A DNA stretch of 64,000 bases from a virus. Under the pieces are notes generated by a model. The model did no database searches. It was not told the DNA's origin and saw only the letters and a program-made list of their open reading frames with translations. Shown piece by piece: positions 1 to 35,318 of the stretch. Positions within the stretch are counted from its first letter, which is position 1, and each line of letters begins with the position of its first letter. The translations under genes were made by a program, and so were the position numbers. The stretch is from the IMG/VR virus record IMGVR_UViG_3300032006_002703, positions 1 to 64,000 of that record; one strand, 5' to 3'.

Positions 1-243
1 ATTTTTAAGGTTTTTTGCACGAAAAAAATCTCCCGAAGTCCTTGAGCTTCAGTGGTTTCCGCAGAAAAAAAAGTCGAGAATGACTTTTGGGGCGTTTTTG
101 CTCCGCTCTACATGAAAAAAACTTTATTTTTTTTCTCCTTGAGCATCAACGACTTAGGTCGCTAGAAGATAGTCGCAAAAGATTTTGCTTGCGATTTCCT
201 CATTTTCTGTCATACTATACTTATAACAATCGAGAAAGACCTT
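1..243 (+). repeat. Diverged ~240-bp direct repeat, copy 1 (may extend left of the window)
   Basis: Aligns by eye with 2614-2857: ATTTTTAAGGTTTTTTGCACGAAAAAAATC...GAAAAAAAGTCGAGAAT...TTTTTGCTCCGC...GATTTTGCTTGCGATTT...GAGAAAGACCTTT. Confidence 0.9.
189..216 (+). promoter_or_regulatory. Putative sigma70-type early promoter (TTGCGA-16-CATACT, TG extension)
   Basis: Same architecture as the promoter at 2802-2829 in the second repeat copy. Confidence 0.55.
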
Positions 244-251
244 TAGAAATT

Positions 252-536
252 ATGTCAAACTTAGTAAACATTCCAGAGTCCATCAAGGACATTAAAAACG
301 CCATCGCTCGCAGAATGACCATTCTTGCAGAGTGGAACGCTATGCTTGCAAAAACTCGTTGCAAGGTTCGTCGCCATACTCGCCAGTTGCAAGCCGATGC
401 AACTAAAGCACAGATTACCTTGTTGCGTGAGGCTCTCGCTAGTGCTGAAAAGCAAGCTGAAATCAACAAAGCAAAACAATTTGTTGCCAGTCTCGCAAGT
501 GTCCGAAAAGACTGGGAAAATGGTCTTTTTGACTGA
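252..536 (+). CDS. Hypothetical early protein, helical/coiled-coil (94 aa)
   Basis: Start moved from TTG 87, which lies inside the repeat/promoter, to ATG 252 (MSNLVNIPES). Confidence 0.7.
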   Translation: MSNLVNIPESIKDIKNAIARRMTILAEWNAMLAKTRCKVRRHTRQLQADATKAQITLLREALASAEKQAEINKAKQFVASLASVRKDWENGLFD

Positions 537-545
537 AAAAAAACC

Positions 546-574
546 TTGACAAAAACCACTTTATTTGCTAGAAT
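546..574 (+). promoter_or_regulatory. sigma70 promoter TTGACA-17-TAGAAT, leaderless
   Basis: ATG 582 follows the -10 box after 7 nt. Confidence 0.85.
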
Positions 575-581
575 TATTATT

Positions 582-1049
582 ATGATTAAGATTGAAAAAC
601 TATTCACCACTTTAGAAAACCTCTTGAAGTCTCACGATTGGACTTTCGACTTCAGCGATGACCACAGCGTTTGGACTCGTGGAAATGAAGAACGAGAACG
701 CTTGCGTTCGCTTGCTCTCGCATTAGGCGAACATGATGCAGAACGAGTTTCTAATCTTTGGAACGCTTTTTGTCCCGATGGGTTTGAGCGTTCAACTGAA
801 AGTTTCGAGCCTAAAAAGCCAGAAGTTAAATGGCGTTTGCGTGAAGGCGTAAAGCCAAACCGCAGATTTCGATTTGCAGACATTAACAAAATTCGCCGTG
901 AGTTGGGCGATGAAAACCTTGAGACTGCAGAAAGTCGCAAGGAAGCAGTCTTTCGCCTAACATGGGGAGTTGAGCCTAACGAGCTTGAAAAGGAAATTGG
1001 TTTCATTTTCCATATGCCTTCGCATCCCGATTTGTGCGAGATTGCTTAA
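582..1049 (+). CDS. Hypothetical phage early protein with HDWxFxxSDD motif
   Basis: Starts MIKIEK at the predicted TSS; LKSHDWTFDFSDDHSVWTRG resembles a motif common in small phage proteins. Confidence 0.8.
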   Translation: MIKIEKLFTTLENLLKSHDWTFDFSDDHSVWTRGNEERERLRSLALALGEHDAERVSNLWNAFCPDGFERSTESFEPKKPEVKWRLREGVKPNRRFRFADINKIRRELGDENLETAESRKEAVFRLTWGVEPNELEKEIGFIFHMPSHPDLCEIA

Positions 1050-1050
1050 A

Positions 1051-1116
1051 ATGATTTTTTTGATTGCAACGGGTTTTTTTATTGGCGTAATGTTAGAACT
1101 AACAAAGGAAAACTGA
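1051..1116 (+). CDS. Small hydrophobic peptide MIFLIATGFFIGVMLELTKEN
   Basis: Starts 1 nt after the upstream stop; TGATG coupling to the next ORF. Confidence 0.5.
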   Translation: MIFLIATGFFIGVMLELTKEN

Positions 1117-1232
1117 TGAACATATATGATTGTCTTATTCTCTTACCAATGGCAGTAGCTACTGGAGTCTATTATTGGGATTTATTCACTTGGAAAAGTG
1201 ACCTTTTCGAGCCTGTAGAAACAGACTCGTAA
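1116..1232 (+). CDS. Small membrane peptide (38 aa, MNIYDCLILLPMAVATGVYYWDLF...)
   Basis: Translationally coupled; its TAA stop is the first 3 nt of the palindromic site at 1230. Confidence 0.55.
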   Translation: MNIYDCLILLPMAVATGVYYWDLFTWKSDLFEPVETDS

Positions 1233-1304
1233 CCCTTTGGGCAACAAGGCTTTAGGGCGGCGCCCTGGCTTGCGACGCGTAAACCCTTGCGTTTCAAGGA
1301 CTTG
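1230..1304. repeat. 75-bp bipartite element 1 (25-bp palindrome + 25-bp GC-rich spacer + 25-bp palindrome)
   Basis: TAACCCTTTG-GGCAA-CAAGGCTTTA / GGGCGGCGCCCTGGCTTGCGACGCG / TAAACCCTTG-CGTTT-CAAGGACTTG. Confidence 0.85.
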
Positions 1305-1408
1305 CGACTAAAGTTAATTTTATTTGATTTTTTTGAAGTTTTTTTCGCGTGTTTCCATTAAGCTTTGGGCGCCAGCAAGATGCGACGCAAACTTTTTTCA
1401 ACTTTTAC

Positions 1409-1437
1409 TTGACAAAGGGGTAAAGGTGTGTTATATT
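1409..1437 (+). promoter_or_regulatory. sigma70 promoter TTGACA-17-TATATT
   Basis: Near-consensus; this transcript has a leader with TAAGGT upstream of ATG 1474. Confidence 0.8.
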
Positions 1438-1473
1438 GTATCTAGAAAGTCAAGTTAAGGTAAGGTAAAAATT

Positions 1474-1614
1474 ATGAACGAAATCAGAAAAGAAATCTCT
1501 ATCCTTCGGGAAACCCTTGAGGACTGTGTCCTCACCATCGCCGAAAAGGTTGCGATTCGCAACCAAATCGGTCAACTGCAAGACGAGCTTGCCCGCTTGT
1601 CCCATGAGGACTAA
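1474..1614 (+). CDS. Small coiled-coil protein (46 aa, MNEIRKEISILRETLEDC...)
   Basis: Not in the ORF track; follows a promoter and SD-like TAAGGT. Confidence 0.65.
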   Translation: MNEIRKEISILRETLEDCVLTIAEKVAIRNQIGQLQDELARLSHED

Positions 1615-1618
1615 ACCA

Positions 1619-1735
1619 ATGCAACCAAAAATCCGCAGTAAGGTTTTATTCACTAAATCCCGCCCACACAAGCGGAAAAACAAAGTCCTTGACCGCAAGC
1701 GAAAGCACAAGAGAAAAGTGCAAGAAATTAATTGA
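1619..1735 (+). CDS. Small basic peptide (38 aa) with FTKSRPHK...RKxKHK, ArfA-like tail
   Basis: MQPKIRSKVLFTKSRPHKRKNKVLDRKRKHKRKVQEIN; paralogue at 3332-3439. Confidence 0.7.
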   Translation: MQPKIRSKVLFTKSRPHKRKNKVLDRKRKHKRKVQEIN

Positions 1736-1744
1736 AAGTTTTTC

Positions 1745-1773
1745 TTGACAAAACCAACTTTTTCCGTTATATT
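1745..1773 (+). promoter_or_regulatory. sigma70 promoter TTGACA-17-TATATT, leaderless
   Basis: ATG 1780 follows the -10 box after 6 nt. Confidence 0.85.
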
Positions 1774-1779
1774 GTTACT

Positions 1780-2052
1780 ATGATTAAGATTAAAAAAGAC
1801 TTCTGGACTCAGCAAGATGTCCCCATGATTCACTTTCGACAAGCTCGCATTGAGGTCACGCTTGCCAATGGCGAGCAGTTCGGCACGATTAAGACCTTGC
1901 CATTTCAAGACGATGCACCGACTAAAGCTCAATGGCTTGAAAGCGTGCAAAACCAGTTTGGCGAAGTTGCCGACATTACCTTCACCGATTGGGGCGTCCA
2001 ATCTGCCAAAGCTCCAAAGGGACACCCTGCATGGAGGTCGCTCGATGTTTAA
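1780..2052 (+). CDS. Hypothetical early protein (90 aa)
   Basis: MIKIKK start at the predicted TSS. Confidence 0.75.
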   Translation: MIKIKKDFWTQQDVPMIHFRQARIEVTLANGEQFGTIKTLPFQDDAPTKAQWLESVQNQFGEVADITFTDWGVQSAKAPKGHPAWRSLDV

Positions 2053-2299
2053 GCAATTTCTTTTTCAAACTCTTTTGCGTTGCAAGTATCATGTGGGATT
2101 TTCCCACAAGAGGCATTGGCTCAGAAAGTATTTTTGGCGTTTAGAATCCGCTCGCAAGTTTGCGGAACAAACGGCATTGACTTCTGTCGGTGGTGCGTCA
2201 ATCGTTTGGCGTAAGGACTTCAAGCCAATGTTTACGGCTCGCCCTCTCGTTAACTACTCAATCCACGAAGACGCAAAAAACTTTTCGACAAACATATAA
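2045..2299 (+). CDS. Hypothetical basic protein (84 aa)
   Basis: ATG 2045 preceded by GGAGG; overlaps the upstream stop. Confidence 0.6.
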   Translation: MFKQFLFQTLLRCKYHVGFSHKRHWLRKYFWRLESARKFAEQTALTSVGGASIVWRKDFKPMFTARPLVNYSIHEDAKNFSTNI

Positions 2300-2301
2300 C
2301 C

Positions 2302-2538
2302 ATGAAAACATTATCCGATTCTCTCAACTGCATGGCATTCACAGCTTGCTTTTATTTAACGCTCGCCTCTTTTGGGCTTTTCCTTATGGGCTTATGGTCA
2401 TGGATTCAGCTTGCAACAGGCTTCCCAACTTCCGCAACTGGCTTGCAAGTTTTTGCTGTGCTTTTGGTCGGTGGGCTTTTTACTTTGCTCGGCACAATCG
2501 GATTGGGCAAGATTTGGGACGCATTACTTAATCGCTAA
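2302..2538 (+). CDS. Small two-TM membrane protein
   Basis: Two hydrophobic stretches; its TAA stop is the first 3 nt of the site at 2536. Confidence 0.7.
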   Translation: MKTLSDSLNCMAFTACFYLTLASFGLFLMGLWSWIQLATGFPTSATGLQVFAVLLVGGLFTLLGTIGLGKIWDALLNR

Positions 2539-2610
2539 ACCTTTGGTGTTCAAGGGTTTAAGGCTTGGCCTTGGCCCGCGGCGCGCAAACCTTTGGTAGT
2601 CAAGAGGTTA
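2536..2610. repeat. 75-bp bipartite element 2
   Basis: TAAACCTTTG-GTGTT-CAAGGGTTTA / AGGCTTGGCCTTGGCCCGCGGCGCG / CAAACCTTTG-GTAGT-CAAGAGGTTA. Confidence 0.9.
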
Positions 2611-2613
2611 CGT

Positions 2614-2857
2614 ATTTTTAAGGTTTTTTGCACGAAAAAAATCTTTGGAAGTCTTTGATTACCAATGATTTCGGCCAGAAAAAAAGTCGAGAATTGGTTT
2701 TTGGGCATTTTTGCTCCGCACGAAGTGATTTTTTTTTACTTTTTTTTCTCTTTGATTATCAGTAGTTTACGCATCTGAGAGCTAATCGAATACGATTTTG
2801 CTTGCGATTTTCTGAGATTCTGTCATTATAGGGTTATGAAAATTGAGAAAGACCTTT
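2614..2857 (+). repeat. Diverged ~240-bp direct repeat, copy 2
   Basis: Matches 1-243; contains two degenerate 25-bp sites (2648-2672, 2745-2769), a promoter (2802-2829) and the first codons of the 2836 ORF. Confidence 0.9.
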
Positions 2858-3141
2858 CACACATCGCCAACGCAGTCGCATTGGCTAACGCTAGCAACAA
2901 CGCAGTTGCTCCACAATTCGCTGACTTGCTCGCTTCCTTGCAAGAGGAAAAGCTCGCTGAGGAGTTTACTCTTGAGCATGGCACTCAACACGCCTCGAAA
3001 GAGGACATCGAACAAGAGTTCGTTTCTCTTGACGCAGTCGAGTCCGACAAGGACGACATTGACGAAAACGATGAGGAGCAAGTCGATATGGATTGCGTAA
3101 GCGGTTCATTCGCTGACCTTTTCGACACTATCGAAAGCTAA
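2836..3141 (+). CDS. Highly acidic hypothetical protein (101 aa)
   Basis: Leaderless MKIEKD start 6 nt after CATTAT; D/E-rich C-terminal half. Confidence 0.8.
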   Translation: MKIEKDLSHIANAVALANASNNAVAPQFADLLASLQEEKLAEEFTLEHGTQHASKEDIEQEFVSLDAVESDKDDIDENDEEQVDMDCVSGSFADLFDTIES

Positions 3142-3173
3142 CATTTTAACCTAAAACTATAACCAAAACAATT

Positions 3174-3323
3174 ATGTTCATACTACAATCAATTCCTTTT
3201 GCCTCAAAATCCGACTGGGTCACAGAATCCATTCCCTTGCTCCGCAAGCAAGCCGAAGCCTTGCTGAAGGCTCGCATTGCTAACGCCACAGGGAAACGCA
3301 GGTTTCGCCTGACAAAGGTGTAA
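3174..3323 (+). CDS. Small hypothetical protein (49 aa, MFILQSIPFASKSDW...)
   Basis: Not in the ORF track; fills the gap between co-oriented genes. Confidence 0.55.
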   Translation: MFILQSIPFASKSDWVTESIPLLRKQAEALLKARIANATGKRRFRLTKV

Positions 3324-3331
3324 GAGTCACC

Positions 3332-3439
3332 ATGCCAAAGGTAAAGGTCAGAGTTCCTTTCGTATTCACGAAGTCACGCCCTCACAAGTCGAAGGTTAAG
3401 TATAACCGCAAACCCAAACATAAGAAAGACTTATCATAA
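3332..3439 (+). CDS. Small basic peptide (35 aa), ArfA-like YxRKxKH tail
   Basis: MPKVKVRVPFVFTKSRPHKSKVKYNRKPKHKKDLS; shares FTKSRPHK with 1619-1735. Confidence 0.7.
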   Translation: MPKVKVRVPFVFTKSRPHKSKVKYNRKPKHKKDLS

Positions 3440-3513
3440 TGATTGAATTGATTTGTGCAATTGGATTTCCTTTCGTACTGCTCGCTGTGGTAGTATGGTG
3501 CTGGCCATCCTAA
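3439..3513 (+). CDS. Single-TM peptide (24 aa, MIELICAIGFPFVLLAVVVWCWPS)
   Basis: TAATG coupling; its stop is the first 3 nt of the site at 3511. Confidence 0.5.
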   Translation: MIELICAIGFPFVLLAVVVWCWPS

Positions 3514-3585
3514 CCTACTGAGTATCAAGGGTTTAGGGCCTGGCAGCCAGGGCTGGTATGTAAACCCTTGGTATACAGTACCTTA
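3511..3585. repeat. 75-bp bipartite element 3
   Basis: TAACCTACTG-AGTAT-CAAGGGTTTA / GGGCCTGGCAGCCAGGGCTGGTATG / TAAACCCTTG-GTATA-CAGTACCTTA. Confidence 0.85.
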
Positions 3586-3635
3586 GGGTAGTAGTATAGG
3601 ACAAGAAGATAGTTGTATATTCTTGCCCATATGGC

Positions 3636-3664
3636 TTGACAAGAGGCTAGTTCTATGCTATATT
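3636..3664 (+). promoter_or_regulatory. sigma70 promoter TTGACA-17-TATATT
   Basis: Near-consensus with TG extension; very short leader before ATG 3678. Confidence 0.8.
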
Positions 3665-3677
3665 ATAGTATATTAAG

Positions 3678-4019
3678 ATGATGAATGTGACAGGAGATTT
3701 CGTATTTAAGCCAACGCCACTGACCCGTGCTCAAGCCTGTGCAGCTAAGCGTATGTGGGCACGCTGGCAAGCTCATACTACTGGCAACACTTATGTGCTT
3801 TATGTGCAGAACAGAACAAGCAAGCACGCCTTTAGGGTAATGGGTCACGGCAAGAATCCATCGCAAGCGGTTAGGCGTTACTATAAGGGGATTGACAACC
3901 GAGGCAATTGGATATGGCAATGCACAAAGGTGGTTGCAGTATACTCTTGCGTATGCGACAAGTCCACACAGGCAGGTGACTTGCTAGTTGGACAAGCTCA
4001 AGACAGAGCACCATGGTGA
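3678..4019 (+). CDS. Hypothetical early protein (113 aa)
   Basis: ORF directly after the promoter. Confidence 0.7.
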   Translation: MMNVTGDFVFKPTPLTRAQACAAKRMWARWQAHTTGNTYVLYVQNRTSKHAFRVMGHGKNPSQAVRRYYKGIDNRGNWIWQCTKVVAVYSCVCDKSTQAGDLLVGQAQDRAPW

Positions 4020-4027
4020 GAAAAGAC

Positions 4028-4056
4028 TTGACAAGTTTAACTTTATTCTATATTAT
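4028..4056 (+). promoter_or_regulatory. sigma70 promoter TTGACA-17-TATTAT, leaderless
   Basis: ATG 4064 follows the -10 box after 7 nt. Confidence 0.8.
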
Positions 4057-4063
4057 TATGCTT

Positions 4064-4255
4064 ATGATTAAACAAGAGATAGAAAGACTCGTTTCGCTTT
4101 TGCAAGCGATGACATTGCAACGCACGACTGCCATCCGTGAGGGTAGGCTTTCCGAAGCCGAACAGATTCGCTCTGTGCAAGAGGACATTGACCACAAGAT
4201 TCAAGAGTTGACTTGCCTCGCACAGGTTGAGGTTGGCATTCGTCAAAGGGGATAA
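4064..4255 (+). CDS. Small helical-hairpin protein (63 aa)
   Basis: MIKQEIERL start at the predicted TSS. Confidence 0.7.
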   Translation: MIKQEIERLVSLLQAMTLQRTTAIREGRLSEAEQIRSVQEDIDHKIQELTCLAQVEVGIRQRG

Positions 4256-4256
4256 G

Positions 4257-4367
4257 ATGAGAGAGTATAGAAATCTAATTCTTTGCGGCATCTTATATAC
4301 TGCATTCGCTGGGCTAATGGTTGGTTGCTTTTATTTGGGTTGCCTGTTGAGCGTCGTAACCAATTAA
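4257..4367 (+). CDS. Single-TM peptide (36 aa, MREYRNLILCGILYTAFAGLMVGCFYLGCLL...)
   Basis: Starts 1 nt after the upstream stop; ends inside the site at 4357. Confidence 0.55.
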   Translation: MREYRNLILCGILYTAFAGLMVGCFYLGCLLSVVTN

Positions 4368-4431
4368 GCCTCAAGGGTTTACGAGCGGGGCCTGGCGGGG
4401 CACCCTTAAACCATTGATCACCAAGGGTTTA
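4357..4431. repeat. 75-bp bipartite element 4
   Basis: TAACCAATTA-AGCCT-CAAGGGTTTA / CGAGCGGGGCCTGGCGGGGCACCCT / TAAACCATTG-ATCAC-CAAGGGTTTA. Confidence 0.85.
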
Positions 4432-4436
4432 GGTGC

Positions 4437-4613
4437 TCACTGGATGAGCTTGCGGAGACCACGAGAGTCTCCCCAATCACCGAGAACGAGATGGAGAATT
4501 TGGGAGCTACCCCAACGACGGACTTCCGCCAACTCTCCGCACTGGAGCACAGAGAGAACAACAAACAGACCATCCCAACGGTCAAGAACGATATCACCTT
4601 TTTCGATTTTCAT
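4437..4613 (-). CDS. Small beta-rich (SH3/KOW-like) protein, 58 aa
   Basis: Not in the ORF track; MKIEKGDIVLDRWDGLFVV; leaderless behind TTGACA(4648-4643)-17-TATTCT. Confidence 0.7.
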   Translation of the reverse strand: MKIEKGDIVLDRWDGLFVVLSVLQCGELAEVRRWGSSQILHLVLGDWGDSRGLRKLIQ

Positions 4614-4656
4614 AATTGAAGAATATATTATTTAGAGTTAAATGTCAAGAACTTTT

Positions 4657-4836
4657 TTAAGAAAAAAATGGGTGGAGCTTAACTTGCCACGGCATGAAAG
4701 CAAAACGCTTTTGTGAGCGATACAAACGGCAAAGGATTTGCTTACCGAGTCGGTCAGTCCTATAATCTGCATCGACAACTTGAAAAATGCGACCACTGCG
4801 GTCTACTACTACATCGTTATTTTTTATCTTAATCAT
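4657..4836 (-). CDS. Small beta-rich (SH3/KOW-like) protein, 59 aa
   Basis: Not in the ORF track; MIKIKNNDVVVDRSGRIFQVV; leaderless behind TTTACA-17-TATTGT. Confidence 0.7.
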   Translation of the reverse strand: MIKIKNNDVVVDRSGRIFQVVDADYRTDRLGKQILCRLYRSQKRFAFMPWQVKLHPFFS

Positions 4837-4911
4837 ACCTATACAATAGCAAAAAAAGACCCTTTTGTAAAGCCTAAAATTCTACTATTTTTTTGGATTA
4901 TTCTACTGCAC

Positions 4912-4936
4912 TAACTCATTGATTGGCAGGGGGTTA
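4912..4936. repeat. Single 25-bp palindromic site closing the early region
   Basis: TAACTCATTG-ATTGG-CAGGGGGTTA fits the TAAACCYTTG-N5-CAAGGGTTTA consensus. Confidence 0.7.
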
Positions 4937-5085
4937 CACTCCCCTCCCCCTTGCTACCCTACCCCTTTTCTGAAATCATTTCGATCTCATACGGCTAGAT
5001 TTTTGCGGGGGGTACTATTTTTCAATATCGAATTTAAAAACAATGCTATAACATACAATCCTCAAATCGGCGGCACTCAAAAAAA

Positions 5086-5346
5086 TCAGCGCCTATAAAT
5101 ATATTTAAGCATTAATAATAAATACGCAAAATTAAGTGCGGAAACAAGCGCTAAAGCAGCAATAGTATACCAGAATTCTGAAATTTGAATAAAAAAGAAC
5201 AATGTCCAAAAATTCCAAATCGCAAAAAACAAAATACTCAATTTGCTGTACCCCTTAACACTCTTATCTTTATAGAGTGTTAAAAGGTTTAGCAAATAAA
5301 AAATCGCGGCAACAAAAATAAATATGCTGTTGATTTTGTCATACAT
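5086..5346 (-). CDS. SemiSWEET/PQ-loop-like 3-TM membrane protein
   Basis: Three hydrophobic helices with LYKDKSVKGYS loop. Confidence 0.55.
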   Translation of the reverse strand: MYDKINSIFIFVAAIFYLLNLLTLYKDKSVKGYSKLSILFFAIWNFWTLFFFIQISEFWYTIAALALVSALNFAYLLLMLKYIYRR

Positions 5347-5355
5347 GAATCATTT

Positions 5356-5736
5356 TTATTTGCGCCACGGGGAGCCATCGCATTTATCAACTAATTTTCT
5401 TACGTAATCTTTTAGAACTTCTTGCTGCTCTTCCCAGGGGAGGTCTTTAGACACATACCAATGTTCTATTTTTTTAGAATACAAACCTCTGTCCCTCCAG
5501 TCGGGTGGATTTGTGTCCATTAATATAATATAATCCGCTTCTTCACATTCTTTTGATGTTACCGTTTCTTTCATTTCGCACATGGCCATCGCTACCCTGG
5601 AAGAAGGCCAGCGACCAATGCCGTGAACACTCATCATAAACAATGCTGCGTTCTTGTTTAACTCATCGAAGAATTTCTTGCAAAATTCTGTTCTTTTTCC
5701 AATGCCTCTCATCGAGACGAATAATACTTTTTTCAT
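5356..5736 (-). CDS. LMW protein-tyrosine-phosphatase/ArsC-like fold, catalytic motif degenerate
   Basis: KKVLFVS..., EEADYIILMD, IEHW; lacks the CX5R loop. Confidence 0.5.
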   Translation of the reverse strand: MKKVLFVSMRGIGKRTEFCKKFFDELNKNAALFMMSVHGIGRWPSSRVAMAMCEMKETVTSKECEEADYIILMDTNPPDWRDRGLYSKKIEHWYVSKDLPWEEQQEVLKDYVRKLVDKCDGSPWRK

Positions 5737-6041
5737 TTTTTGTCCTTATATAGAATAATTTTATTGTCTTGTACGAGCATGCGGGCGTTAATTGTCACAT
5801 GTTCTATCGCTTTATCCATTCGGTCCATCCATTTTTCGGTGAACCTGCACCATTCTTCTATTTTGTGGATTGTAATTTTACTTGCGTGAATTTTTCCACG
5901 TTGAAGAGTGTGGTTAATATCTTCTAGAGCTTCGCTCGAATGATATACATTATAGTATTGTTTACTTTTTCCGACCGAAAGACCAGAGTGATAAACTATT
6001 CTATAGCTCATAGGTCTTGGGTGTCGATTTTTCTTTTTCAC
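5733..6041 (-). CDS. Hypothetical protein
   Basis: ATGA-coupled ORF in operon. Confidence 0.7.
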   Translation of the reverse strand: MKKKNRHPRPMSYRIVYHSGLSVGKSKQYYNVYHSSEALEDINHTLQRGKIHASKITIHKIEEWCRFTEKWMDRMDKAIEHVTINARMLVQDNKIILYKDKK

Positions 6042-6556
6042 TGTTTTAAGATGTAGATTTTTTTAATAATTGTCTTATCTTCGAAAAAATTGTTTATTTC
6101 TTGTTTTGAGTGAGTGGGGTAGGTCATATAATGCCAATCCTTAAGGTCATTCCTACCCCTTAGGAGGACTATTGCAACATCATCAGGCCCGAGGTCTTTG
6201 AATTTATTGACAGCCTTTATTTTGAAGCCTTTGTATTCTAAATAACTTAACAATTCTGGCGGGCAGGTTATTTTTGTAAAGTCATGATGTGCCGCAGAAA
6301 GTATTCCCCTATAATCAACCTTGGCGCGATCTTGCATCTCTTTTCCAATATCAAAAGCGCTCTTTTCTTTTCCAAAACATTTGTAGACATCACTGATAGC
6401 TTCTGGGCCACAACTTTGCAAATGACAAAGCTCATAGCCTTTTTCTCTCATTTTTTTATGATCTTCTGGCTCGGATAGATAATATATGGCCCCACACCCA
6501 CAAAATAACGGGGCGATCGTTATTAGCAAAAGAGTCGATACAAACAGGTTATACAT
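6038..6556 (-). CDS. Putative lipoprotein with C39/papain-like peptidase motifs
   Basis: Signal peptide with lipobox-like FCGC; QSCGP cysteine motif and WHY histidine. Confidence 0.5.
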   Translation of the reverse strand: MYNLFVSTLLLITIAPLFCGCGAIYYLSEPEDHKKMREKGYELCHLQSCGPEAISDVYKCFGKEKSAFDIGKEMQDRAKVDYRGILSAAHHDFTKITCPPELLSYLEYKGFKIKAVNKFKDLGPDDVAIVLLRGRNDLKDWHYMTYPTHSKQEINNFFEDKTIIKKIYILKQ

Positions 6557-6674
6557 TTTTACTTATATATACACTTGATTTTTTTTTAAAAACCGTGTAT
6601 AATAACATGAAGTACTCAATTCCGAGGCTTCTGAGCGCTCTTTATAGGGGCTCGCAAAAATAAAGGACAGTTAA

Positions 6675-7160
6675 ATGACAAATAAAAATAAAGCTCCTGG
6701 CGGCTTGGCCAGTTCAATGCTCCCTGCGTTTTCCAGGGATGAATTCCTCACTCCCTTCGACTCATTTTTTGATAATGTAGTCGGACAACTATACCCCTCT
6801 TTTGGTAGAGAAGTTGGAGTTGAGTTTTTTGGTAACAACTCTTACCCTAAAGTAGATGTTATTGATCACGATGATAAAATCACCATCGAGGCAGAAATTC
6901 CTGGACTCAGTAAAGATGAGGTTTCTGTTGATTTGGAAGAAAACGTTATCACTGTGTCTGGCTTGAAACATAGTCACACCGAAGATACTAGTACTCGATA
7001 TATCCGTAGAGAACTAAAGCGTTCAGCTTTCAAGCGCTCATTTAAATTGGGAGAAAACCTAAACCTGAAAAAGGTAAAGGCGGATTTTCAGAACGGGGTT
7101 TTACTGATTAGTGTTCCAAAAACGGCGCCTGCAAAACCTAAAAAGGTTAAAATTCTTTAA
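6675..7160 (+). CDS. Small heat-shock protein, Hsp20/alpha-crystallin
   Basis: YPKVDV, AEIPGL, F.RSF.L, ADFQNGVLLISVPK motifs. Confidence 0.95.
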   Translation: MTNKNKAPGGLASSMLPAFSRDEFLTPFDSFFDNVVGQLYPSFGREVGVEFFGNNSYPKVDVIDHDDKITIEAEIPGLSKDEVSVDLEENVITVSGLKHSHTEDTSTRYIRRELKRSAFKRSFKLGENLNLKKVKADFQNGVLLISVPKTAPAKPKKVKIL

Positions 7161-7191
7161 GTTTAACCAGCTGGTGTAAATAAAGCTAACA

Positions 7192-7283
<92 letters not shown>

Positions 7284-7284
7284 T

Positions 7285-7372
<88 letters not shown>

Positions 7373-8077
7373 TTAGCGGTCCCCAATTTTCTTAATGATA
7401 AATTTAAGGAGTTCGGATCGCAAGATATCCTGCTCTTTGAATTGAAAGCTTTCTATGCCATTATGGCGACTATCTTCGTCGTCAAAAAGTTTACACATGT
7501 CAAAAAATCCACTTTTCCCATTAATATCGCTTTGCATAGAGTCTCCGCAAACAAAAAGCTTTGAGTTTTCTCCTAGGCGGGTTATTAGTGTGGTTAATTC
7601 TTTGAATGTAAAATTCTGAGCTTCATCTGCAACGACTATTTTATTTTTCCAATCCGCGCCTCTTATAAAATTAATGGGCATCGCTTTGATTCTTCCCTCT
7701 TCCATTAATTCTTTTTTAATTGTTGTGTTTTGAGGCAACATTTCCCAAAGCTTATCTTCCAGTGGGGCCATATAAGGGTTAAATTTTTCATCTAAATCTC
7801 CAGGCAATGCCCCTAGTCCTTTTTCCGCGCTTTCGATAACCGTTCTAACATAAAGCAGGTCTAGTTCGTTATACGCACTTAGCAACCTTAAGGCAGAATA
7901 TACTGCCATATATGTTTTTGTGGATCCCGCTGGCCCATTGATAAATATAAGTTTTACTTTATGGTCTAAAGCCTTGGATAGGAAGAGCTTCTGATTCTCC
8001 GTTAGTTTTTTAGAGTGAATCGGAATGCTCTGCTTGAGCTGTGGAATCTCAATTTTTTTCGGCTTTTTCGCGGGCAC
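7373..8077 (-). CDS. phoH: PhoH-family ATPase
   Basis: GPAGSTKT, LGALPGD, FIRG, DEAQN, LITRLGE, GDxxQSD. Confidence 0.93.
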   Translation of the reverse strand: MPAKKPKKIEIPQLKQSIPIHSKKLTENQKLFLSKALDHKVKLIFINGPAGSTKTYMAVYSALRLLSAYNELDLLYVRTVIESAEKGLGALPGDLDEKFNPYMAPLEDKLWEMLPQNTTIKKELMEEGRIKAMPINFIRGADWKNKIVVADEAQNFTFKELTTLITRLGENSKLFVCGDSMQSDINGKSGFFDMCKLFDDEDSRHNGIESFQFKEQDILRSELLKFIIKKIGDR

Positions 8078-23911: not shown

Positions 23912-24920
23912 AGAAAATTACCAAAAAACTGCAGGTTTATCAGAATTAACTCAAGCCGTATTTTACAATGATGATCTTGATGGTAGGAGTAGAGAGGGTC
24001 GTGCGGTCAGGAAGTTTATGCAAGATCGTAAGCTTTCTTATACCACGAAGCATATAGATAAGAAAGAAGATATTATCTTAAATTCTGAGCAGCGAGAATT
24101 TTTGATAAATAATATTAGTGCAGATATGACATGCGCTCAACTCTCTCAGCTCCTGTTTCCTGACGCACAAATAACTCACTTGACAAAAGAATATCGCGCG
24201 GTACATGATTTTATGCAGGAACATGAAGGGGTTCCAGATTGCGAAAGTGCGGTAAATGTAAAATACTTTCCCCCAAAAGCCGTCAGTAAAATAATTAAAA
24301 AAATCAACGATTACTCTGGAGAAGAGCTTTCTGAAGAAAAGCTTAATCTTCAGCAAAAGTTATCAGTTGAATCTCTTGGTAAATTTTTAGCAGCACCAAG
24401 ATTTCTTTCTGTAATTAATAATTATACAGACGCTAAAGATAGGACTTTATTTGAAGCGGAATTTGTTCGGGCGACATGGGATAAGCCAGATCTAACTTCT
24501 GATGAAATTAACTTATACATTAATGTATGCATGGATTATATTCATTTAAAGAATATCCATAATAATATCGGCAAGCTAAATAGAATGTTTGACGAGTGCG
24601 AAGACCAGCAGGATATGACCGTTAGATTAGCTGAACTGTTAAAGACGAAAAGCGAAGAATACAATCAATGCGAAAAGAGAATGGAGTCTTTGATTCAAAA
24701 GCTGCAAGGAGATCGGGCAAAAAGAGTAGCAAGTAAGGAAAAAGATAATGCTAGCCTTTTGAGTCTGGTACAATTATTTCAAGCAGAAGAGGAGCGCAAA
24801 ATTATGTTAAAAATTGCTGAACGACAAAGACAAGCAGTCAAGGATGAGACTGATGAACTAGAGAGCATGCCAGATTGGAAATCTAGGGTTCTCGGAATAT
24901 CAAAAGAAGATGTCCTCTGA
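23865..24920 (+). CDS. Conserved-looking phage protein with C-terminal coiled coil (terminase small subunit not excluded)
   Basis: In an operon upstream of the terminase. Confidence 0.55.
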   Translation: MTQEIILTEDQKNYIRENYQKTAGLSELTQAVFYNDDLDGRSREGRAVRKFMQDRKLSYTTKHIDKKEDIILNSEQREFLINNISADMTCAQLSQLLFPDAQITHLTKEYRAVHDFMQEHEGVPDCESAVNVKYFPPKAVSKIIKKINDYSGEELSEEKLNLQQKLSVESLGKFLAAPRFLSVINNYTDAKDRTLFEAEFVRATWDKPDLTSDEINLYINVCMDYIHLKNIHNNIGKLNRMFDECEDQQDMTVRLAELLKTKSEEYNQCEKRMESLIQKLQGDRAKRVASKEKDNASLLSLVQLFQAEEERKIMLKIAERQRQAVKDETDELESMPDWKSRVLGISKEDVL

Positions 24921-25839
24921 GATTATATGTAAAATTTGCGGAGAAGGATTTACTAGCGAAAAATCCCTCCACCACCACTTAAAGAAGCACGGCACCACAA
25001 TGGCGGAATATTATACTACCCATTACCCTAGGTTTAATCTTTTTAATGGAGATCCTCTTCCGTTTAAAAATAAAGAGCAATATTTTGGCTCAGATTTTAG
25101 CACGAGGCAGCAGCTATTAAAGTGGTGCAAGTCTCAGGACCCTGAGGAGGTTAGGCCTTACATTTTAAACTTATTAAAAAAGAGGATTGAGTCCCGCGAC
25201 TTAAAGATTGGACCTTCTCATTTGGAGTTGAAGCTGAGCTCCTTGCCTACTGTTGATATATTTCAGGAAATCTTTGGCTCCTATACTATTGCATGTAAGG
25301 CTGCGGGAGTTAAGCCTATGTTTGGTAGCAGGTTGCCTTTTAAGTTTTTCCAAGAAAGTCTTGGTCACGTTAATGTGTTTATAGATACGCGAGAACAAAA
25401 ACCTTTGAGCTTCCCAAGTTCAAGCGAAATGAAATTAGATGTTGGAGATTATACCTGCGGGGGAGATCACTACTCTTATACATATGTAGATAGAAAAGGA
25501 GAGCAGGATTTTAAGTCTACATTAAGTAAGCACAACCTAGAGAGATTCGATTCAGAGCTTAAGCGCGCCAAAGATATGGGCGCCTATTTATATATAGTAA
25601 CAGAAAGCGATTTAACTCAAATTTACAAAAACAATAGATGGGGGCCTCATAAATCTAATTTAAAATATATATTCCATAACATGAGGGTTCTCGCGCATAA
25701 GTACGCAGGCACCTGTCAATTTATATTCACAGGGGGGAGAGAAGCCTCTGAGAAAATTATCCCAGAGCTTTTAGTGAGAGGCAAAGAGCTTTGGGATGTG
25801 GACATTCAATATTATATAGACAATAATGAGCTGGAGTGA
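24910..25839 (+). CDS. C2H2 zinc finger plus ERCC4-type nuclease
   Basis: CKIC...HLKKH; IDTREQ, VGDY, DRK motifs. Confidence 0.78.
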   Translation: MSSEIICKICGEGFTSEKSLHHHLKKHGTTMAEYYTTHYPRFNLFNGDPLPFKNKEQYFGSDFSTRQQLLKWCKSQDPEEVRPYILNLLKKRIESRDLKIGPSHLELKLSSLPTVDIFQEIFGSYTIACKAAGVKPMFGSRLPFKFFQESLGHVNVFIDTREQKPLSFPSSSEMKLDVGDYTCGGDHYSYTYVDRKGEQDFKSTLSKHNLERFDSELKRAKDMGAYLYIVTESDLTQIYKNNRWGPHKSNLKYIFHNMRVLAHKYAGTCQFIFTGGREASEKIIPELLVRGKELWDVDIQYYIDNNELE

Positions 25840-30084: not shown

Positions 30085-31293
30085 ATGAATATTACACTAG
30101 AACGTACTCCAGAACAAGTAGAGCTTGTTAAGGCTTGCGCGTCCAAGAATCGTGACGTCGCATTTGAAGCTCAGGCAGTCTTGGCCGAATTTATCGGTCC
30201 AGTCTTGGCTGAAGTAATTAATACTGCTCCCACTGTTAGTAATCTATTCTCTTCCCTTCAGTTTAACTCTGAGGACAATCCTAGCATTCCGCTCGATCTC
30301 TATTACGATATCGACGATGAGGATTACGTCCAAATTTGGAGTCAACAAGTGCCAGGTGGCTTGCCTACCAACACTGTTGCTCCTTCACATAGTGAAGTGA
30401 AATTTACGACATACAACCTCGATAGCGCAGTATCCTTCAATAAGAGGTATGCCGCTCGATCAAGGCTTGACGTGGTTAGCAAAACGTTTACGCGAATTGC
30501 TCAAGAAATTCTCTTGAAGCAAGAGCAAACAGCTGCGAATATGATTTTCACAGCCCTTGCTAAGGCGACAACAAATAATACGAAACACGTTATTCGTTCC
30601 GCTCAACAAGGTCGATTCCTTTTGGCAGACTTGAACAAATTGTTCACGCTTGCCAAGCGAATCAACACCTCCTGGACGGGCGGTACACCTGAAAGTCGAC
30701 GTGGACGCGGTGTTACGGACCTTCTCGTCTCTCCTGAGATCGTTGAGGAAATCCGTGGTATGGCTTACAACCCGATTAATACCATCGGTTCTGACGGAAA
30801 GAAGCCAGCAGCTGGCGATTCCGCCAATATCCCTGGTACGGATTCAATGCGCGAAGCTGTATTCAACAGCGCGGGCATTCCTGAATTCTACGGTGTTTCC
30901 ATCATGGAATTCAACGAAATGGGTAGTCAAGACGCATTCGATACGTCCAAAGCGTACAGCGACGGATCCAATAACGAAAAATGGAACACGGTATTTGGGC
31001 AGATGGCAATGGATGCCAACAACCAAGGTATTAAATATCCTGATTTCTTCGTTAGCAAGGACCATAGCGGCGAGAAGAAGTTCTCCAAGGGCGAGCAAAT
31101 CGTTCTCGGTGTCGACCTCTCTCGCGATTCTATGATTCGTGCAGTTGCGGTTGATGCAGAGTCTGGCTCCGAGTTCAATCTCGTGGTCGACGATCAATTC
31201 GTTACCCGCCAAGCTAAGGTTGGCTATTATGGTTCACTCGACGAAGGTCGCGTGATCCTCGATGACCGTGTCCTCACGGGCATAATCGTTTAA
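30085..31293 (+). CDS. Major capsid protein
   Basis: 402 aa, strong SD AGGAG, synteny, followed by a terminator. Confidence 0.8.
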   Translation: MNITLERTPEQVELVKACASKNRDVAFEAQAVLAEFIGPVLAEVINTAPTVSNLFSSLQFNSEDNPSIPLDLYYDIDDEDYVQIWSQQVPGGLPTNTVAPSHSEVKFTTYNLDSAVSFNKRYAARSRLDVVSKTFTRIAQEILLKQEQTAANMIFTALAKATTNNTKHVIRSAQQGRFLLADLNKLFTLAKRINTSWTGGTPESRRGRGVTDLLVSPEIVEEIRGMAYNPINTIGSDGKKPAAGDSANIPGTDSMREAVFNSAGIPEFYGVSIMEFNEMGSQDAFDTSKAYSDGSNNEKWNTVFGQMAMDANNQGIKYPDFFVSKDHSGEKKFSKGEQIVLGVDLSRDSMIRAVAVDAESGSEFNLVVDDQFVTRQAKVGYYGSLDEGRVILDDRVLTGIIV

Positions 31294-31319: not shown

Positions 31320-31351
31320 AAAAATCCACCCCTTGCGGGTGGATTTTTTTT
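31320..31351 (+). terminator. Rho-independent terminator
   Basis: AAAAATCCACCC-CTTGC-GGGTGGATTTTTTTT. Confidence 0.9.
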
Positions 31352-32293: not shown

Positions 32294-32818
32294 ATGAAGG
32301 AATCCAATAAAGCAGAGTACCAGCAAGGCAAACTTCATAGGTCTGCGTTGTATAAGGCCTGTCAAGACGCCCAGACTTTATACGATCTAATTGGAGATGA
32401 CGATGTCCTCGAGGAATGGGTCGCGGAACAAATTAGGGTTTCTACTGAAACCTTGGAGACTGTTTTAAAGTATGTTGAATACGAAAAGGCTTTTCCTGCG
32501 ATTCCAGATTCCAGCCCAATTGCCGACGAAGAAGAGCAAAAAAATGAAAATAATTATCTCTCTAACGAAGATAAAAGGTATCCAACTCCCATGGAAGCGG
32601 AGAATGGGGACGGATTTATATCAAGGTGCATTGTCGACCCCAATATGAAAAACCGTTACCCTGAGCAGTCTGATAGATTTATGGCCTGCATGCTCATATG
32701 GAAAGAGGTCGGAAAGCCTGGTAGTGGAGAAGTTGATAACCCTGGGGAAAAATTTGAAGACCCTATGGAGGCTCCTCAGGAGGAAATTAAAGATCCTACA
32801 AAACCTGTTCTTCCTTAA
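32294..32818 (+). CDS. Hypothetical acidic protein
   Basis: GTGTA-N9-ATG upstream; FISRC...YP..RF.AC motif. Confidence 0.7.
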   Translation: MKESNKAEYQQGKLHRSALYKACQDAQTLYDLIGDDDVLEEWVAEQIRVSTETLETVLKYVEYEKAFPAIPDSSPIADEEEQKNENNYLSNEDKRYPTPMEAENGDGFISRCIVDPNMKNRYPEQSDRFMACMLIWKEVGKPGSGEVDNPGEKFEDPMEAPQEEIKDPTKPVLP

Positions 32819-35318
32819 TGGAATAACAAATCTCACCTTTTTTGTAGCTAAAGGTGATTGAGTGATCTATATCAAGCTCCTTAGATAAAAGCAGTTCTGA
32901 GAGCTTATTTTCTATTAAAGTTTGAATTGCTCTTTTAATCGGTCTCGCTCCAAGATCTTCCTGTTGGGCAACTTCAGCCAGATGACGAACAATCGAGGCA
33001 GTAAGTTTCATCTTTACCCCTTTCTTCCTTAGCTTATTTTTTAGATTTTTCATTTCAAGGTGAATGATTTTTCGAAAATCTTCATCACTAAACTTATGAA
33101 AGACGACTACCTCTGTCATTCTATTTACAAGCTCTGGCCTTAATAGTTTTTTTGCTTGATCTAGAATTTTATCTTTCATTTCTCCTTTGTTGTCATTATT
33201 TGTTGCTCCAAAGCCCATTGATAGTGATTTTTCAAAAAGATCTGAGCCAATATTTCCAGTAAGTATGATTACTGCGTTTTTGAACGAAGCTTCTCTGCCA
33301 AAATTATCAGTGAGCCTACCTTCTTCCAGAACTTGAAGCAAACTTTGCAGGACCTCTGGGTGCGCCTTGTCGATCTCATCAAATAAAACAACGCTATATG
33401 GCTGCCTGCTTATTCTTTCCGTTAGCTGTCCACCTTCTTCGTATCCCACGTATCCAGGTGCGGCGCCTATTAATTTCGAAGCAGAAACTTTATCGGAATA
33501 TTCGCTCATGTCTAGTTGGATAATTTTATGCTTCTCTCCAAAAAGAGATTTTGAGATTGATTTCGCCATATGGGTTTTGCCTGTTCCTGTCGGCCCCAAA
33601 CAAAGAAAACTTCCCATTGGTTTATTCTCTTCTCCTAGACCCGACCCAGACCTTAACATTGCTTGAACTACTGCATTTATTGCGTCGTCTTGCCCGATGA
33701 CCGTTTTTTTCAAAGATTTAGATAAGGTAAGGAGTCTTTGATTCTGCGTTTGAGATAATTGAGATACTGGTATCTTAACTTTTTGAGAAACAATTCTGTA
33801 TATATCTTCTTCCTTTACTGGACTAAATTTCTTGGAGCATCTGTGGCCCCACTTCGTCAATAGATTGGTATATTCTATTAAAACCTCTCTTTGCTGATTT
33901 TGAATATCTACTAAACTTTTTCCTATTTTACTCAGTTCTCGCTCTTCCTTTACTAGTTCCTCCAATTCCACTTCTAGCGCCTTTGCGCGTTTAGGCCTTT
34001 TGAAGCTGCGAATTTTTACTCGCGATCCTGCTTGATCAATAATATCTATAGCCTTATCTGGGAATCTTCTGTCATGAATATACTTTTTTGCTAAAGTTGT
34101 AACAAGTTCGAGTACTTCGTCTGAGTATTCTACCATATGAAATTCTTCATATTTTGCTTTAGTCCCCTTTAGTATTTCTAGGGTTTCTTCTTCGCTGGGC
34201 TCTTCAACGAAAACTGGCTGAAAGCGGCGATCAAGCGCCCCGTCCTTTGTGATGCTCTTTTTGTATTCGTCTTGTGTTGTTGCTCCAATGCAAATCAATT
34301 CGCCCCTAGATAGGGCTGGCTTAATCATATTTGCCGCATCCATGCTTCCCTCTGCACTTCCTGCGCCTATAATTGTATGAATTTCATCAACAAATAAAAT
34401 TATATGCTCTGAAGATTTTACTTCTTCAAGCGCCTGTTTTAAGCGTTCCTCAAACTGTCCACGATATTTTGTCCCTGCTATCATTGCCCCAAGGTCAAGG
34501 CTATAGATAACCTTGCCAAGAAGATGCTCTGGACAATTTCCGTCGGCTATATTTTGCGCAAGGCTTTCTATGATTGCGGTTTTGCCTACTCCTGCCTCGC
34601 CGAGAAGTATTGGATTGCTTTTATAGCGACGACATAAAATTTCACACAAATCCGCAACTTCACTGCTTCTTCCTACTATTTTATCAAATTTCCCAGCAAT
34701 CGCAAGATCATTGAAATTAGTTCCGTATTTTTCTAGGGCTCCGCTTTCTTTTTTTCTAGAGGGTCTAATTTGTGGTGGCGGCGGAGACCCAAAGATGCCA
34801 GGATCTTCATTGCCTTGCTCCTCCTCTGAGGACCAAGGGGAGTGAGGCATATTTTGGCTGAAGTCTTGAGATAATTGAAAATATTGCTGAATTTGTTCAA
34901 TGATAACATCTTGAGGGATGCCTAGCATTGCGAAATATTTATTGATTGGCGAGTCGTCATACTTTAGCATCGCGAGAAGTATGTGTTCTAATCCTACATA
35001 TTCATGATTAAACCTGTTGCTTAGGGTCATTGCTATTTGTAAAACATTTTTTATTCCTGCGCTATATTTAAACTTAGTTTTGCCGTCTATTGAATCTTTT
35101 CCTTTTTTTAGTCTTTTTTTGATTGCCCTCACAAAGGAATCAATATCAATCCCTAGGGATATAAGAAGCTCATGAGTTATCCCTGCATTTAAACTAAGTA
35201 TCCCAAGGAACAAATGCTCAAGAGTAACTGTTCTGTGGGATAGTTCTTTTGCCTGCTCCTTGGCTCGCTTAATAGCCCTTTGCGCTCGTGGTGTGAAGTT
35301 TGGCTTGCTGTCCATCAT
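32796..35318 (-). CDS. clpC: ClpC/ClpA-family AAA+ chaperone
   Basis: NFTPRAQ Clp-N repeats, GEAGVGKT and GPTGTGKT Walker A motifs, GAAPGYVGY. Confidence 0.93.

Follow-up and report, generated by a model that had tools for sequence, protein, structure and literature searches.

A 75-bp double-palindromic element at the probable recombination seams of early-gene modules in large uncultured phages

In large phages, most of the unknown genes are found in the early regions, and they are presumed to serve host takeover or counter-defence. The plasticity of these regions has so far been described in mechanistic detail only for the promoter-early stem-loop (PeSL) cassettes of T4-type phages. These cassettes are located in hyperplastic regions of T4-type myoviruses; their stem-loop terminates transcription effectively, and recombination gives rise to mini-circles (PMC2839356, PMC4122927). 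Here we describe a quite different and more strictly built element of 75 bp that appears to do the same job in a clade of large uncultured phages, where it occurs in hundreds of copies in more than 100 contigs. Four copies (E1 to E4, Table 1) lie at one end of the stretch from which the analysis started, the first 64,000 nucleotides (the window) of the linear IMG/VR virus record IMGVR_UViG_3300032006_002703, which is 107,410 bp long and rated 76% complete.

Functionally, the PeSL cassettes (PMC2839356, PMC4122927) are the closest counterpart of this locus. In both cases, short conserved intergenic repeats bracket small ORFan early genes, each unit has a sigma-70-type promoter, the repeats are linker sequences at which relatives gain, lose and swap modules without a dedicated recombinase, and some crossovers fall between the -10 box and the start codon. 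However, there is no sequence likeness. The PeSL is a GGGG...CCCC terminator hairpin joined to a promoter, whereas the present element is a double palindrome of fixed length (75 bp) in which IHF-type half-sites surround a polar GC core. Its promoter is a separate repeat unit, 0-150 nt away and in helical phase, and there is no T-run. Built-in stop codons and a near-symmetry that permits inversions also go beyond what PeSLs offer. The clade in question consists of large uncultured phages with a sigma-like gene, a ZnF-ERCC4 gene, PhoH and DUF932.

Each of the four elements in the window measures exactly 75 bp and is made up of an arm of 10, a spacer of 5, an arm of 10, a GC-rich core of 25 nt, and again an arm of 10, a spacer of 5 and an arm of 10. 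With at most one mismatch, the 10-mer CAAGGGTTTA occurs at 15 sites in the window, against 5.7 expected, a number reached by none of 100 shuffles; 10 of the 15 sites fall within the four elements. A generic detector found no further copy in the 107-kb contig. A pattern derived from the inner arms in the window led to arrays in seven other viral contigs. Closer relatives were reached via the 113-aa protein encoded at 3678-4019, and the arm variant present there (CAAcGAcTTA / TAAgTCgTTG) served as a second pattern, which matched at least 120 stretches. Altogether, the family comprises at least 352 distinct copies in at least 109 IMG/VR viral loci. Its consensus is cgTAAsTCGTTG-ATwAT-CAACGAsTTAcg, followed by a GC core with a central C-run and then a second identical palindrome; the palindrome itself reads TAAsTCGTTGAT-w-ATCAACGAsTTA across the family. 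The core is 25 nt long in 229 of the 352 copies. The 25/25/25 length is rigid, and certain bases show strong conservation even between phages with proteins less than 60% identical. In genome G261 (211 kb, rated 100% complete by CheckV), the 10 copies are all confined to 3.0-16.7 kb, where they form two convergent sub-arrays. In most relatives the arrays are, like that of the window, located at contig ends.

A blastn search of 50,697 GenBank phages with a consensus-like element found no element-like sequence, and the arm 10-mers did not occur in the searched literature. An Rfam scan of window positions 1-8000 with E values up to 1 returned two tRNA-Ser genes and weak overlaps on them, but no match to an element. 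Among 251 Planctomycetota genomes, five had one match each to the palindrome with 3 mismatches, against one control match, which is too weak a signal to count. From these searches, the element family is apparently undescribed so far. It could serve as a simple sequence marker for early-gene cassettes in metagenomic phages, and as a natural scaffold for studying the exchange of phage accessory genes.

The initial annotation had proposed a modular array of host-takeover or anti-defence genes, assembled or shuffled at the elements. A modular array of promoter-led ORFan genes is indeed present. The array proteins have no significant Pfam match, and their PHROG matches are solely to families of unknown function. 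Comparison with relatives showed that the window and loci L040, L041/L042 and L043 have module genes in common, at 52-96% amino-acid identity. Their gene-order maps differ (Table 1), and neither order nor orientation is therefore fixed. Several of the junctions are located within elements. In E1, the right half is homologous to L040 together with the downstream flank, while the left half and the upstream flank are not, placing the junction in the E1 core. The unit left of E3 is inverted in L040, and homology stops at arm 3/4. After gene 3678 there is a full element in L040, a partial one in L042, and in the window only a piece of arm 2, fused to the -35 box of the promoter at 4028. Exchange also takes place within modules, at promoter/start sequences, as the homology of gene 4064 begins at the ATG. 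Such variable junction points are better explained by general recombination between repeats than by crossover at a fixed site. As the copies are alike and nearly symmetric, such recombination could delete, swap or invert modules, and a dedicated recombinase would be unnecessary. Most likely, then, the elements mark where related phages have reshuffled genes, as the comparison of their sequences suggests.

The integron-like system that had initially been suspected was not found. Like integron attC sites, the elements contain two inverted box pairs around a variable centre; arrays of small genes, with the stop of a short gene often located in the first box, are common to both. In contrast to the GTTRRRY of attC, the boxes end in ACTTAcg, and there is no IntI. 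Nor is there a sign of a selected single-strand fold, the complementarity of the arms being about equal to that of shuffles. Integron cassettes are promoterless, face in one orientation and depend on a common promoter, while the modules described here come with promoters of their own and are found in either orientation. In addition, junctions vary in position, and genes are also exchanged inside modules. The missing enzyme was sought in five partial genomes (G000, which is the contig of the window, G001-G003 and the L012 contig) and in four element-bearing genomes rated 100% complete by CheckV. None of these nine genomes yielded a tyrosine recombinase (PF00589), a serine recombinase or a Y1-HUH enzyme (PF01797), whereas the PF00589 positive control was found in 14 of 14 reference genomes. 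We conclude from this absence that the array is not an integron.

The elements could still be attC- or hix-like targets of a dedicated, so far unrecognised enzyme that moves or inverts cassettes. The layout of inverted boxes around a variable centre, the junctions within elements, the inversion of some modules, a clade-conserved zinc-finger and ERCC4-like nuclease, and a RuvB-like ATPase in some relatives would all suit such an enzyme. The same is true of one exact core inversion between neighbouring duplicates: the copies at L031:2924-2998 and 3894-3968 (equivalent to L030:3334-3408 and 4304-4378) hardly differ in their arms and 60-nt flanks (0 and 2 mismatches), yet the 23-nt core of one is the exact inversion of the other's. 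This pair is the only one among 47 comparable pairs, the other 46 having cores in the same orientation, and core flip-flop was rejected as a family-wide trait. In view of this rarity, the empty recombinase searches, the case-by-case variation of junction positions, the swapping of genes inside modules at promoter/start sequences, the cassettes' own promoters and the helical phasing of these promoters, which suggests a regulatory role, we consider site-specific recombination improbable. Similarly low is the probability that we assign to a variant in which the elements are sites of a cassette-exchange machinery without a classical recombinase, for example a ZnF/ERCC4-type nuclease acting on extruded palindromes, with the membrane micropeptide as the fixed last gene of the cassette. 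If true, it would let these large phages deliberately excise, invert and trade early-gene cassettes.

The protein encoded at 24910-25839 has an N-terminal C2H2 zinc finger and a sub-threshold ERCC4 (XPF/Mus81-type) nuclease domain, and its gene overlaps the start of the TerL gene. Homologues of this protein adjoin arrays in 24 other loci, and a RuvB-like ATPase does so in 11. It may be the enzyme with which the phage resolves junctions.

The modules had been described as having strong promoters of their own, and this holds. TTGACA-N17-TATAAT is matched at 11 of 12 positions at five sites in the first 4.1 kb (546, 1409, 1745, 3636 and 4028, all on the plus strand), and the whole 107 kb contains only 12 such sites on both strands. 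Across the family, strong promoters at element sides read outward in 122 cases and inward in 39. Outward promoters follow 104 of the 352 elements, on one side only and never on both sides of the same element. Distances between the element end and the -10 box show a period of 10.5 bp (R 0.35, p about 1e-5, n 94), and none of 9, 12 or 13 bp. In the window, a strong promoter lies after E1 and after E3, a weak one after E2, and there is none after E4. The distance at E3 (73 nt) belongs to the main cluster, and that at E1 (127 nt) is about five turns longer. The core is polar as well: with the sense strand set by the abutting gene, as was possible for 149 copies, the sense strand carries the C-run in 82 of 121 clear cases (39 opposite), and in G261 it does so in 10 out of 10 copies.

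Genes 582, 1780, 4064 and 4836 (the last on the minus strand) begin 6-7 nt after a -10 box, so that their mRNAs would be leaderless or nearly so. A repeated unit (546-600, 1745-1800, 4028-4085 and, on the minus strand, 4871-4820) combines a near-consensus promoter with the start ATGATTAA(G/A). Read from the sequence, this arrangement implies leaderless mRNAs and proteins beginning with MIK. Because the homology of gene 4064 in relatives begins exactly at the ATG, the promoter/start units resemble a second kind of recombination seam.

The spacer and arm of the element together read wATCAAnnnnTTA, with invariant and variable positions in register with the IHF consensus WATCAANNNNTTR (PMC10380432). 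Every element contains four such half-sites in two inverted pairs. The outer arms had played no part in detection. They match the consensus perfectly in 15-21% of copies and with at most one mismatch in 48-59%, against backgrounds of 0.004% and 0.095% per position. Of all 1408 half-sites in the family, 62% have at most one mismatch, compared with 0.1% for the background.

We favour, with even confidence, the explanation that the element is a PeSL-like boundary module acting on duplex DNA, a predicted docking site for an IHF/HU-type DNA-bending protein, and a recombination seam. Two 25-bp palindromes, with half-sites like those of IHF/HU-type proteins, flank the 25-bp GC-rich core with its sense-strand C-run. 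The element closes one early-gene module, giving a TAA or TGA stop to the abutting gene, and usually lies whole helical turns upstream of the next sigma-70-type promoter. A bound protein, probably the host's, would set the promoter geometry or insulate neighbouring units, and general recombination between copies would delete, swap or invert the modules. The side on which promoters lie, their phasing and the polarity of the core are in keeping with a protein that docks on one face of the duplex, ahead of early promoters. As a candidate docking site, the element could help to identify the architectural protein of the host, and perhaps the host.

As to the identity of the protein, a distant relative encodes an IHF-like protein of the HU family as a single-gene module between two elements (L036:5750-6043, or G001:C1:60011-60274), which scores 74/70 bits with the IHF-alpha/IHF-beta models and 43/42 bits with HU models. 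A phage-encoded HU/IHF protein as the general partner was nevertheless rejected, as it was found only in G001. In five candidate PVC genomes, the HU-family proteins reached 60-77 bits with the IHF-alpha model, below the cut-off of 111.

Several findings weigh against this explanation. The arms in the window are degenerate, with one perfect half-site in 16 and five with one mismatch. The T and C inside the NNNN of the consensus are conserved too, which IHF recognition alone does not explain. No HU/IHF gene is present in the four complete element-bearing genomes, which would make a host protein the usual partner; the ClpC match that points to Verrucomicrobiota/Lentisphaerota reaches only 43%, making the PVC host lead weak. 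No strong consensus promoter is found within 200 nt of 248 of the 352 copies; E4 lacks a promoter altogether, and E2 is about 214 nt from its weak promoter, off phase. The copies are related to each other, and the phasing and polarity statistics therefore overstate their independence. Finally, a role at the transcript level would likewise be compatible with the polarity of the core and the location at gene ends.

The RNase III sites of T7 lie within one long transcript, between small early genes, and are weakly conserved in sequence between distant phages. The transcribed element might likewise form one long imperfect hairpin, or three hairpins, and serve as a terminator, an mRNA stabiliser or an RNase III site as in the T7 early region, and a ribosome stopping in arm 1 could modulate the fold. 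Like the T7 sites, the elements can form long imperfect hairpins and are situated between small early genes, at the early end of the genome. They are found at the 3' ends of modules and between convergent modules, their C-run polarity tracks the sense strand, and the spacer middles pair less often than chance, as would be expected of an internal loop. Family copies fold much better than dinucleotide shuffles (mean z -4.3; E3 is similar), but any palindrome is expected to do so, and the other three copies in the window fold like shuffles (z -0.5 to -1.5). The shortfall of pairing in the spacer middles also speaks for duplex DNA over a folded strand. The complementarity between arms is barely above that of shuffled partners, and no arm pairing shows compensatory covariation. 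In the 149 oriented copies, the sense strand has at least as many A·C mismatches as G·U pairs. Selection for a core hairpin was not supported, as cores are no more foldable than shuffled cores.

There is no T-run after any element (24% T in the 10 nt that follow), and a canonical intrinsic terminator was therefore rejected, the more so as the same phage uses textbook hairpins with T-runs elsewhere. One of them, a bidirectional terminator after gene 30085-31293, consists of an A-run, a 12-bp stem and a T-run at 31320-31348. In contrast to the T7 sites, every module is served by promoters of its own, and TAA..C.TTG is conserved across very distant phages. Together with the empty Rfam scan, these results make an RNA-level signal unlikely, and they lend no support to the idea, raised in the initial annotation, that the element couples translation termination to RNA processing.

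It is also rather implausible that the element is a selfish or neutral palindromic repeat of the REP/MITE type, spreading in early regions without a function for the phage. Its many copies are palindromic, always intergenic and located at rearrangement junctions, as would be expected of such a repeat. However, the copies are confined to one genome region, core polarity and promoter phasing are fixed, no Y1 transposase was found, and neither the rigid 25/25/25 design nor the strong base conservation among phages with less than 60% protein identity would be expected. In the RIP layout, two GC-rich REPs flank one IHF site. The layout of the present element is the inverse, with IHF-type palindromes flanking a GC core, although the REP/BIME sequences of enterobacteria (PMC3333891, PMC2817692) are likewise intergenic repeats of composite, palindromic build, close transcription units and combine GC-rich palindromes with IHF-type sites. 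Further differences are the location in phages rather than chromosomes, the lack of a RAYT/Y1 transposase (PF01797) in the nine genomes, and the lack of a GTAG/CGTC tag.

A small hydrophobic peptide had been noted as the last gene before the element in all four modules, with its stop inside the first palindrome. Both observations were confirmed (38, 78, 24 and 36 aa): in three cases the stop is the opening TAA of arm 1, and in the fourth a TAA 8 nt further in. By simple arithmetic, with four hydrophobic genes placed among about 15 array genes, only 1 of 1365 arrangements would put all of them last. ORF (open reading frame) 4257-4367 is 81% identical to L042 10912-11022, with 12 synonymous and 7 non-synonymous codon changes. 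Counterparts of the 24-aa ORF 3439-3513, 24-25 aa long and hydrophobic, occupy the same place in L042 and, inverted, in L040, despite strong sequence divergence. At least two of the micropeptide ORFs can, on this comparative evidence, be regarded as real genes. No homologue of the 38-aa ORF 1116-1232 was found in the loci of relatives that were examined.

The hydrophobic gene is last in four of four cases in the window and three of four in L042, but family-wide such micropeptides occur at 3.4% of element sides, compared with 0.9% of random windows. The rule was therefore rejected for the family and is confined to the lineage of the window. The family-wide rule is instead that the arm supplies the stop codon: of 181 ORFs that abut an element, 119 terminate at the arm TAA (offset 15) or TGA (offset 7). 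Non-hydrophobic genes are served in the same way, such as the homologues of gene 3678 in L040 and L031. Since the arm provides a stop for any abutting gene, we read the micropeptides as cargo that remains attached to the left arm when modules rearrange, outside the mechanism of the element.

One peptide family that is conserved in the arrays of distant relatives is very basic, 35-40 aa long and marked by the motif FTKSRPHK ahead of K/R runs. In three lineages, the basic peptide is directly followed by the hydrophobic peptide of 24-25 aa and then the element.

Table 1. Features of the array and gene-order maps. In the maps, h stands for hydrophobic micropeptide, b for basic peptide and E for element.
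Feature	Position	Strand	Remarks
Weak promoter-like site TTGCGA-N18-TACTAT	189-218	+	Ahead of gene 252-536; homologous copy 2802-2829
Module 1 genes	252-536, 582-1049	+	94 aa, coiled-coil-like; 155 aa
Promoter	546-574	+	Ahead of 582-1049; start 7 nt after -10, near-leaderless
Hydrophobic ORF, 38 aa	1116-1232	+	AAGGA 8 nt upstream; stop is TAA of E1 arm 1
Element E1	1230-1304		75 bp (25/25/25); right half and downstream flank homologous to L040, left half not
Module 2	1409-2299	+	Promoters 1409-1437, 1745-1773; genes 1474-1614, 1619-1735 (basic 38-aa peptide), 1780-2052, 2045-2299
Hydrophobic ORF, 78 aa	2302-2538	+	Two membrane-like segments; stop is TAA of E2 arm 1
Element E2	2536-2610		75 bp
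Post-element leader with weak promoter	2614-2857	+	73-80% copy of window 1-244
Module 3 genes	2836-3141, 3174-3323, 3332-3439	+	Last: basic 35-aa peptide, paralogue of 1619-1735
Hydrophobic ORF, 24 aa	3439-3513	+	Start overlaps preceding stop (TAATG); stop is TAA of E3 arm 1
Element E3	3511-3585		75 bp; orthologue L042 5770-5848; fold z -4.2
Promoter and gene (113 aa)	3636-3664, 3678-4019	+	-10 begins 73 nt after E3
Arm remnant (AAAGACTT)	4020-4033		Fused to -35 of promoter 4028-4056; full or partial element here in L040/L042
Promoter and near-leaderless gene (63 aa)	4028-4056, 4064-4255	+
Hydrophobic ORF, 36 aa	4257-4367	+	Stop is TAA inside E4 arm 1, 8 nt further in
Element E4	4357-4431		75 bp; between convergent modules
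Fifth module	4437-4871	-	Read leftwards into E4; promoter-like site 4871-4843; genes 4836-4657, 4613-4437
Basic peptides, window	1619-1735, 3332-3439
Basic peptides, relatives	L031:6794-6916; L042:5590-5691; L040:5183-5284 (-); L043:7269-7361
Map, window			[252, 582, 1116h] E1 [1474, 1619b, 1780, 2045, 2302h] E2 [2836, 3174, 3332b, 3439h] E3 [3678, 4064, 4257h] E4 [4613, 4836, both -]
Map, L041/L042			[2836, 3174, basic, 24-aa hydrophobic] E [3678 ...] E [4613, 1780, 2045 ...] E [4836, 2836 paralogue ... 4064 ... 4257h] E
Map, L040			[1780, 582, 3678] E [inverted: 25-aa hydrophobic, basic, 3174, 2836] [4613, 4064 ...] E [1474 ...]

The array had been described as four modules ending at 4431. 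The four modules stand, but the end does not, as a fifth module follows. It is on the minus strand and read into E4, placing E4 between convergent units, and its homologues in L040 and L042 (78-91%) lie on the array strand. The 155-aa protein of module 1 is 88% identical to its L040 counterpart, and homologues of the module 2 genes occupy other positions in relatives. The AlphaFold model of the 113-aa protein 3678-4019, built with five homologues, had a mean pLDDT of 50.6, too poor for fold comparison. With the flanking protein 6038-6556 as query, no related loci were found.

Within the array, the repeat 127-244 / 2740-2857 includes weak promoter-like sites. As window positions 1-244 repeat 2614-2857 (repeat families D1 and D2), the stretch that follows E2, the contig starts immediately after another element. 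The assembly probably broke at this leftmost element, with the array, and possibly the genome map as well, probably extending leftwards beyond the contig start.

The array region had no match in the blastn search of the 50,697 GenBank phages, none of which is similar in DNA sequence to the phage of the window. The TerL of the phage, which has a T4-type N-domain, is only 24-27% identical to known terminases, those of Bacillus and Clostridium phages. Other genes encode PhoH, a ribonucleotide reductase, Hsp20, a sigma-like protein, the two tRNA-Ser and a ClpB/C-type ATPase (32796-35318). The best cellular matches of this ATPase, at 43% identity, are in Verrucomicrobiota and Lentisphaerota. These matches are the sole pointer to a host, in the PVC group, and a weak lead, as they are too distant to decide. 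Beyond the window and close to the right end of the contig, there are two additional promoter sites with 11 of 12 matching positions, at 102248 and 105825 on the plus strand. They could be part of another early region, one that would border on the array in a circularly permuted genome.

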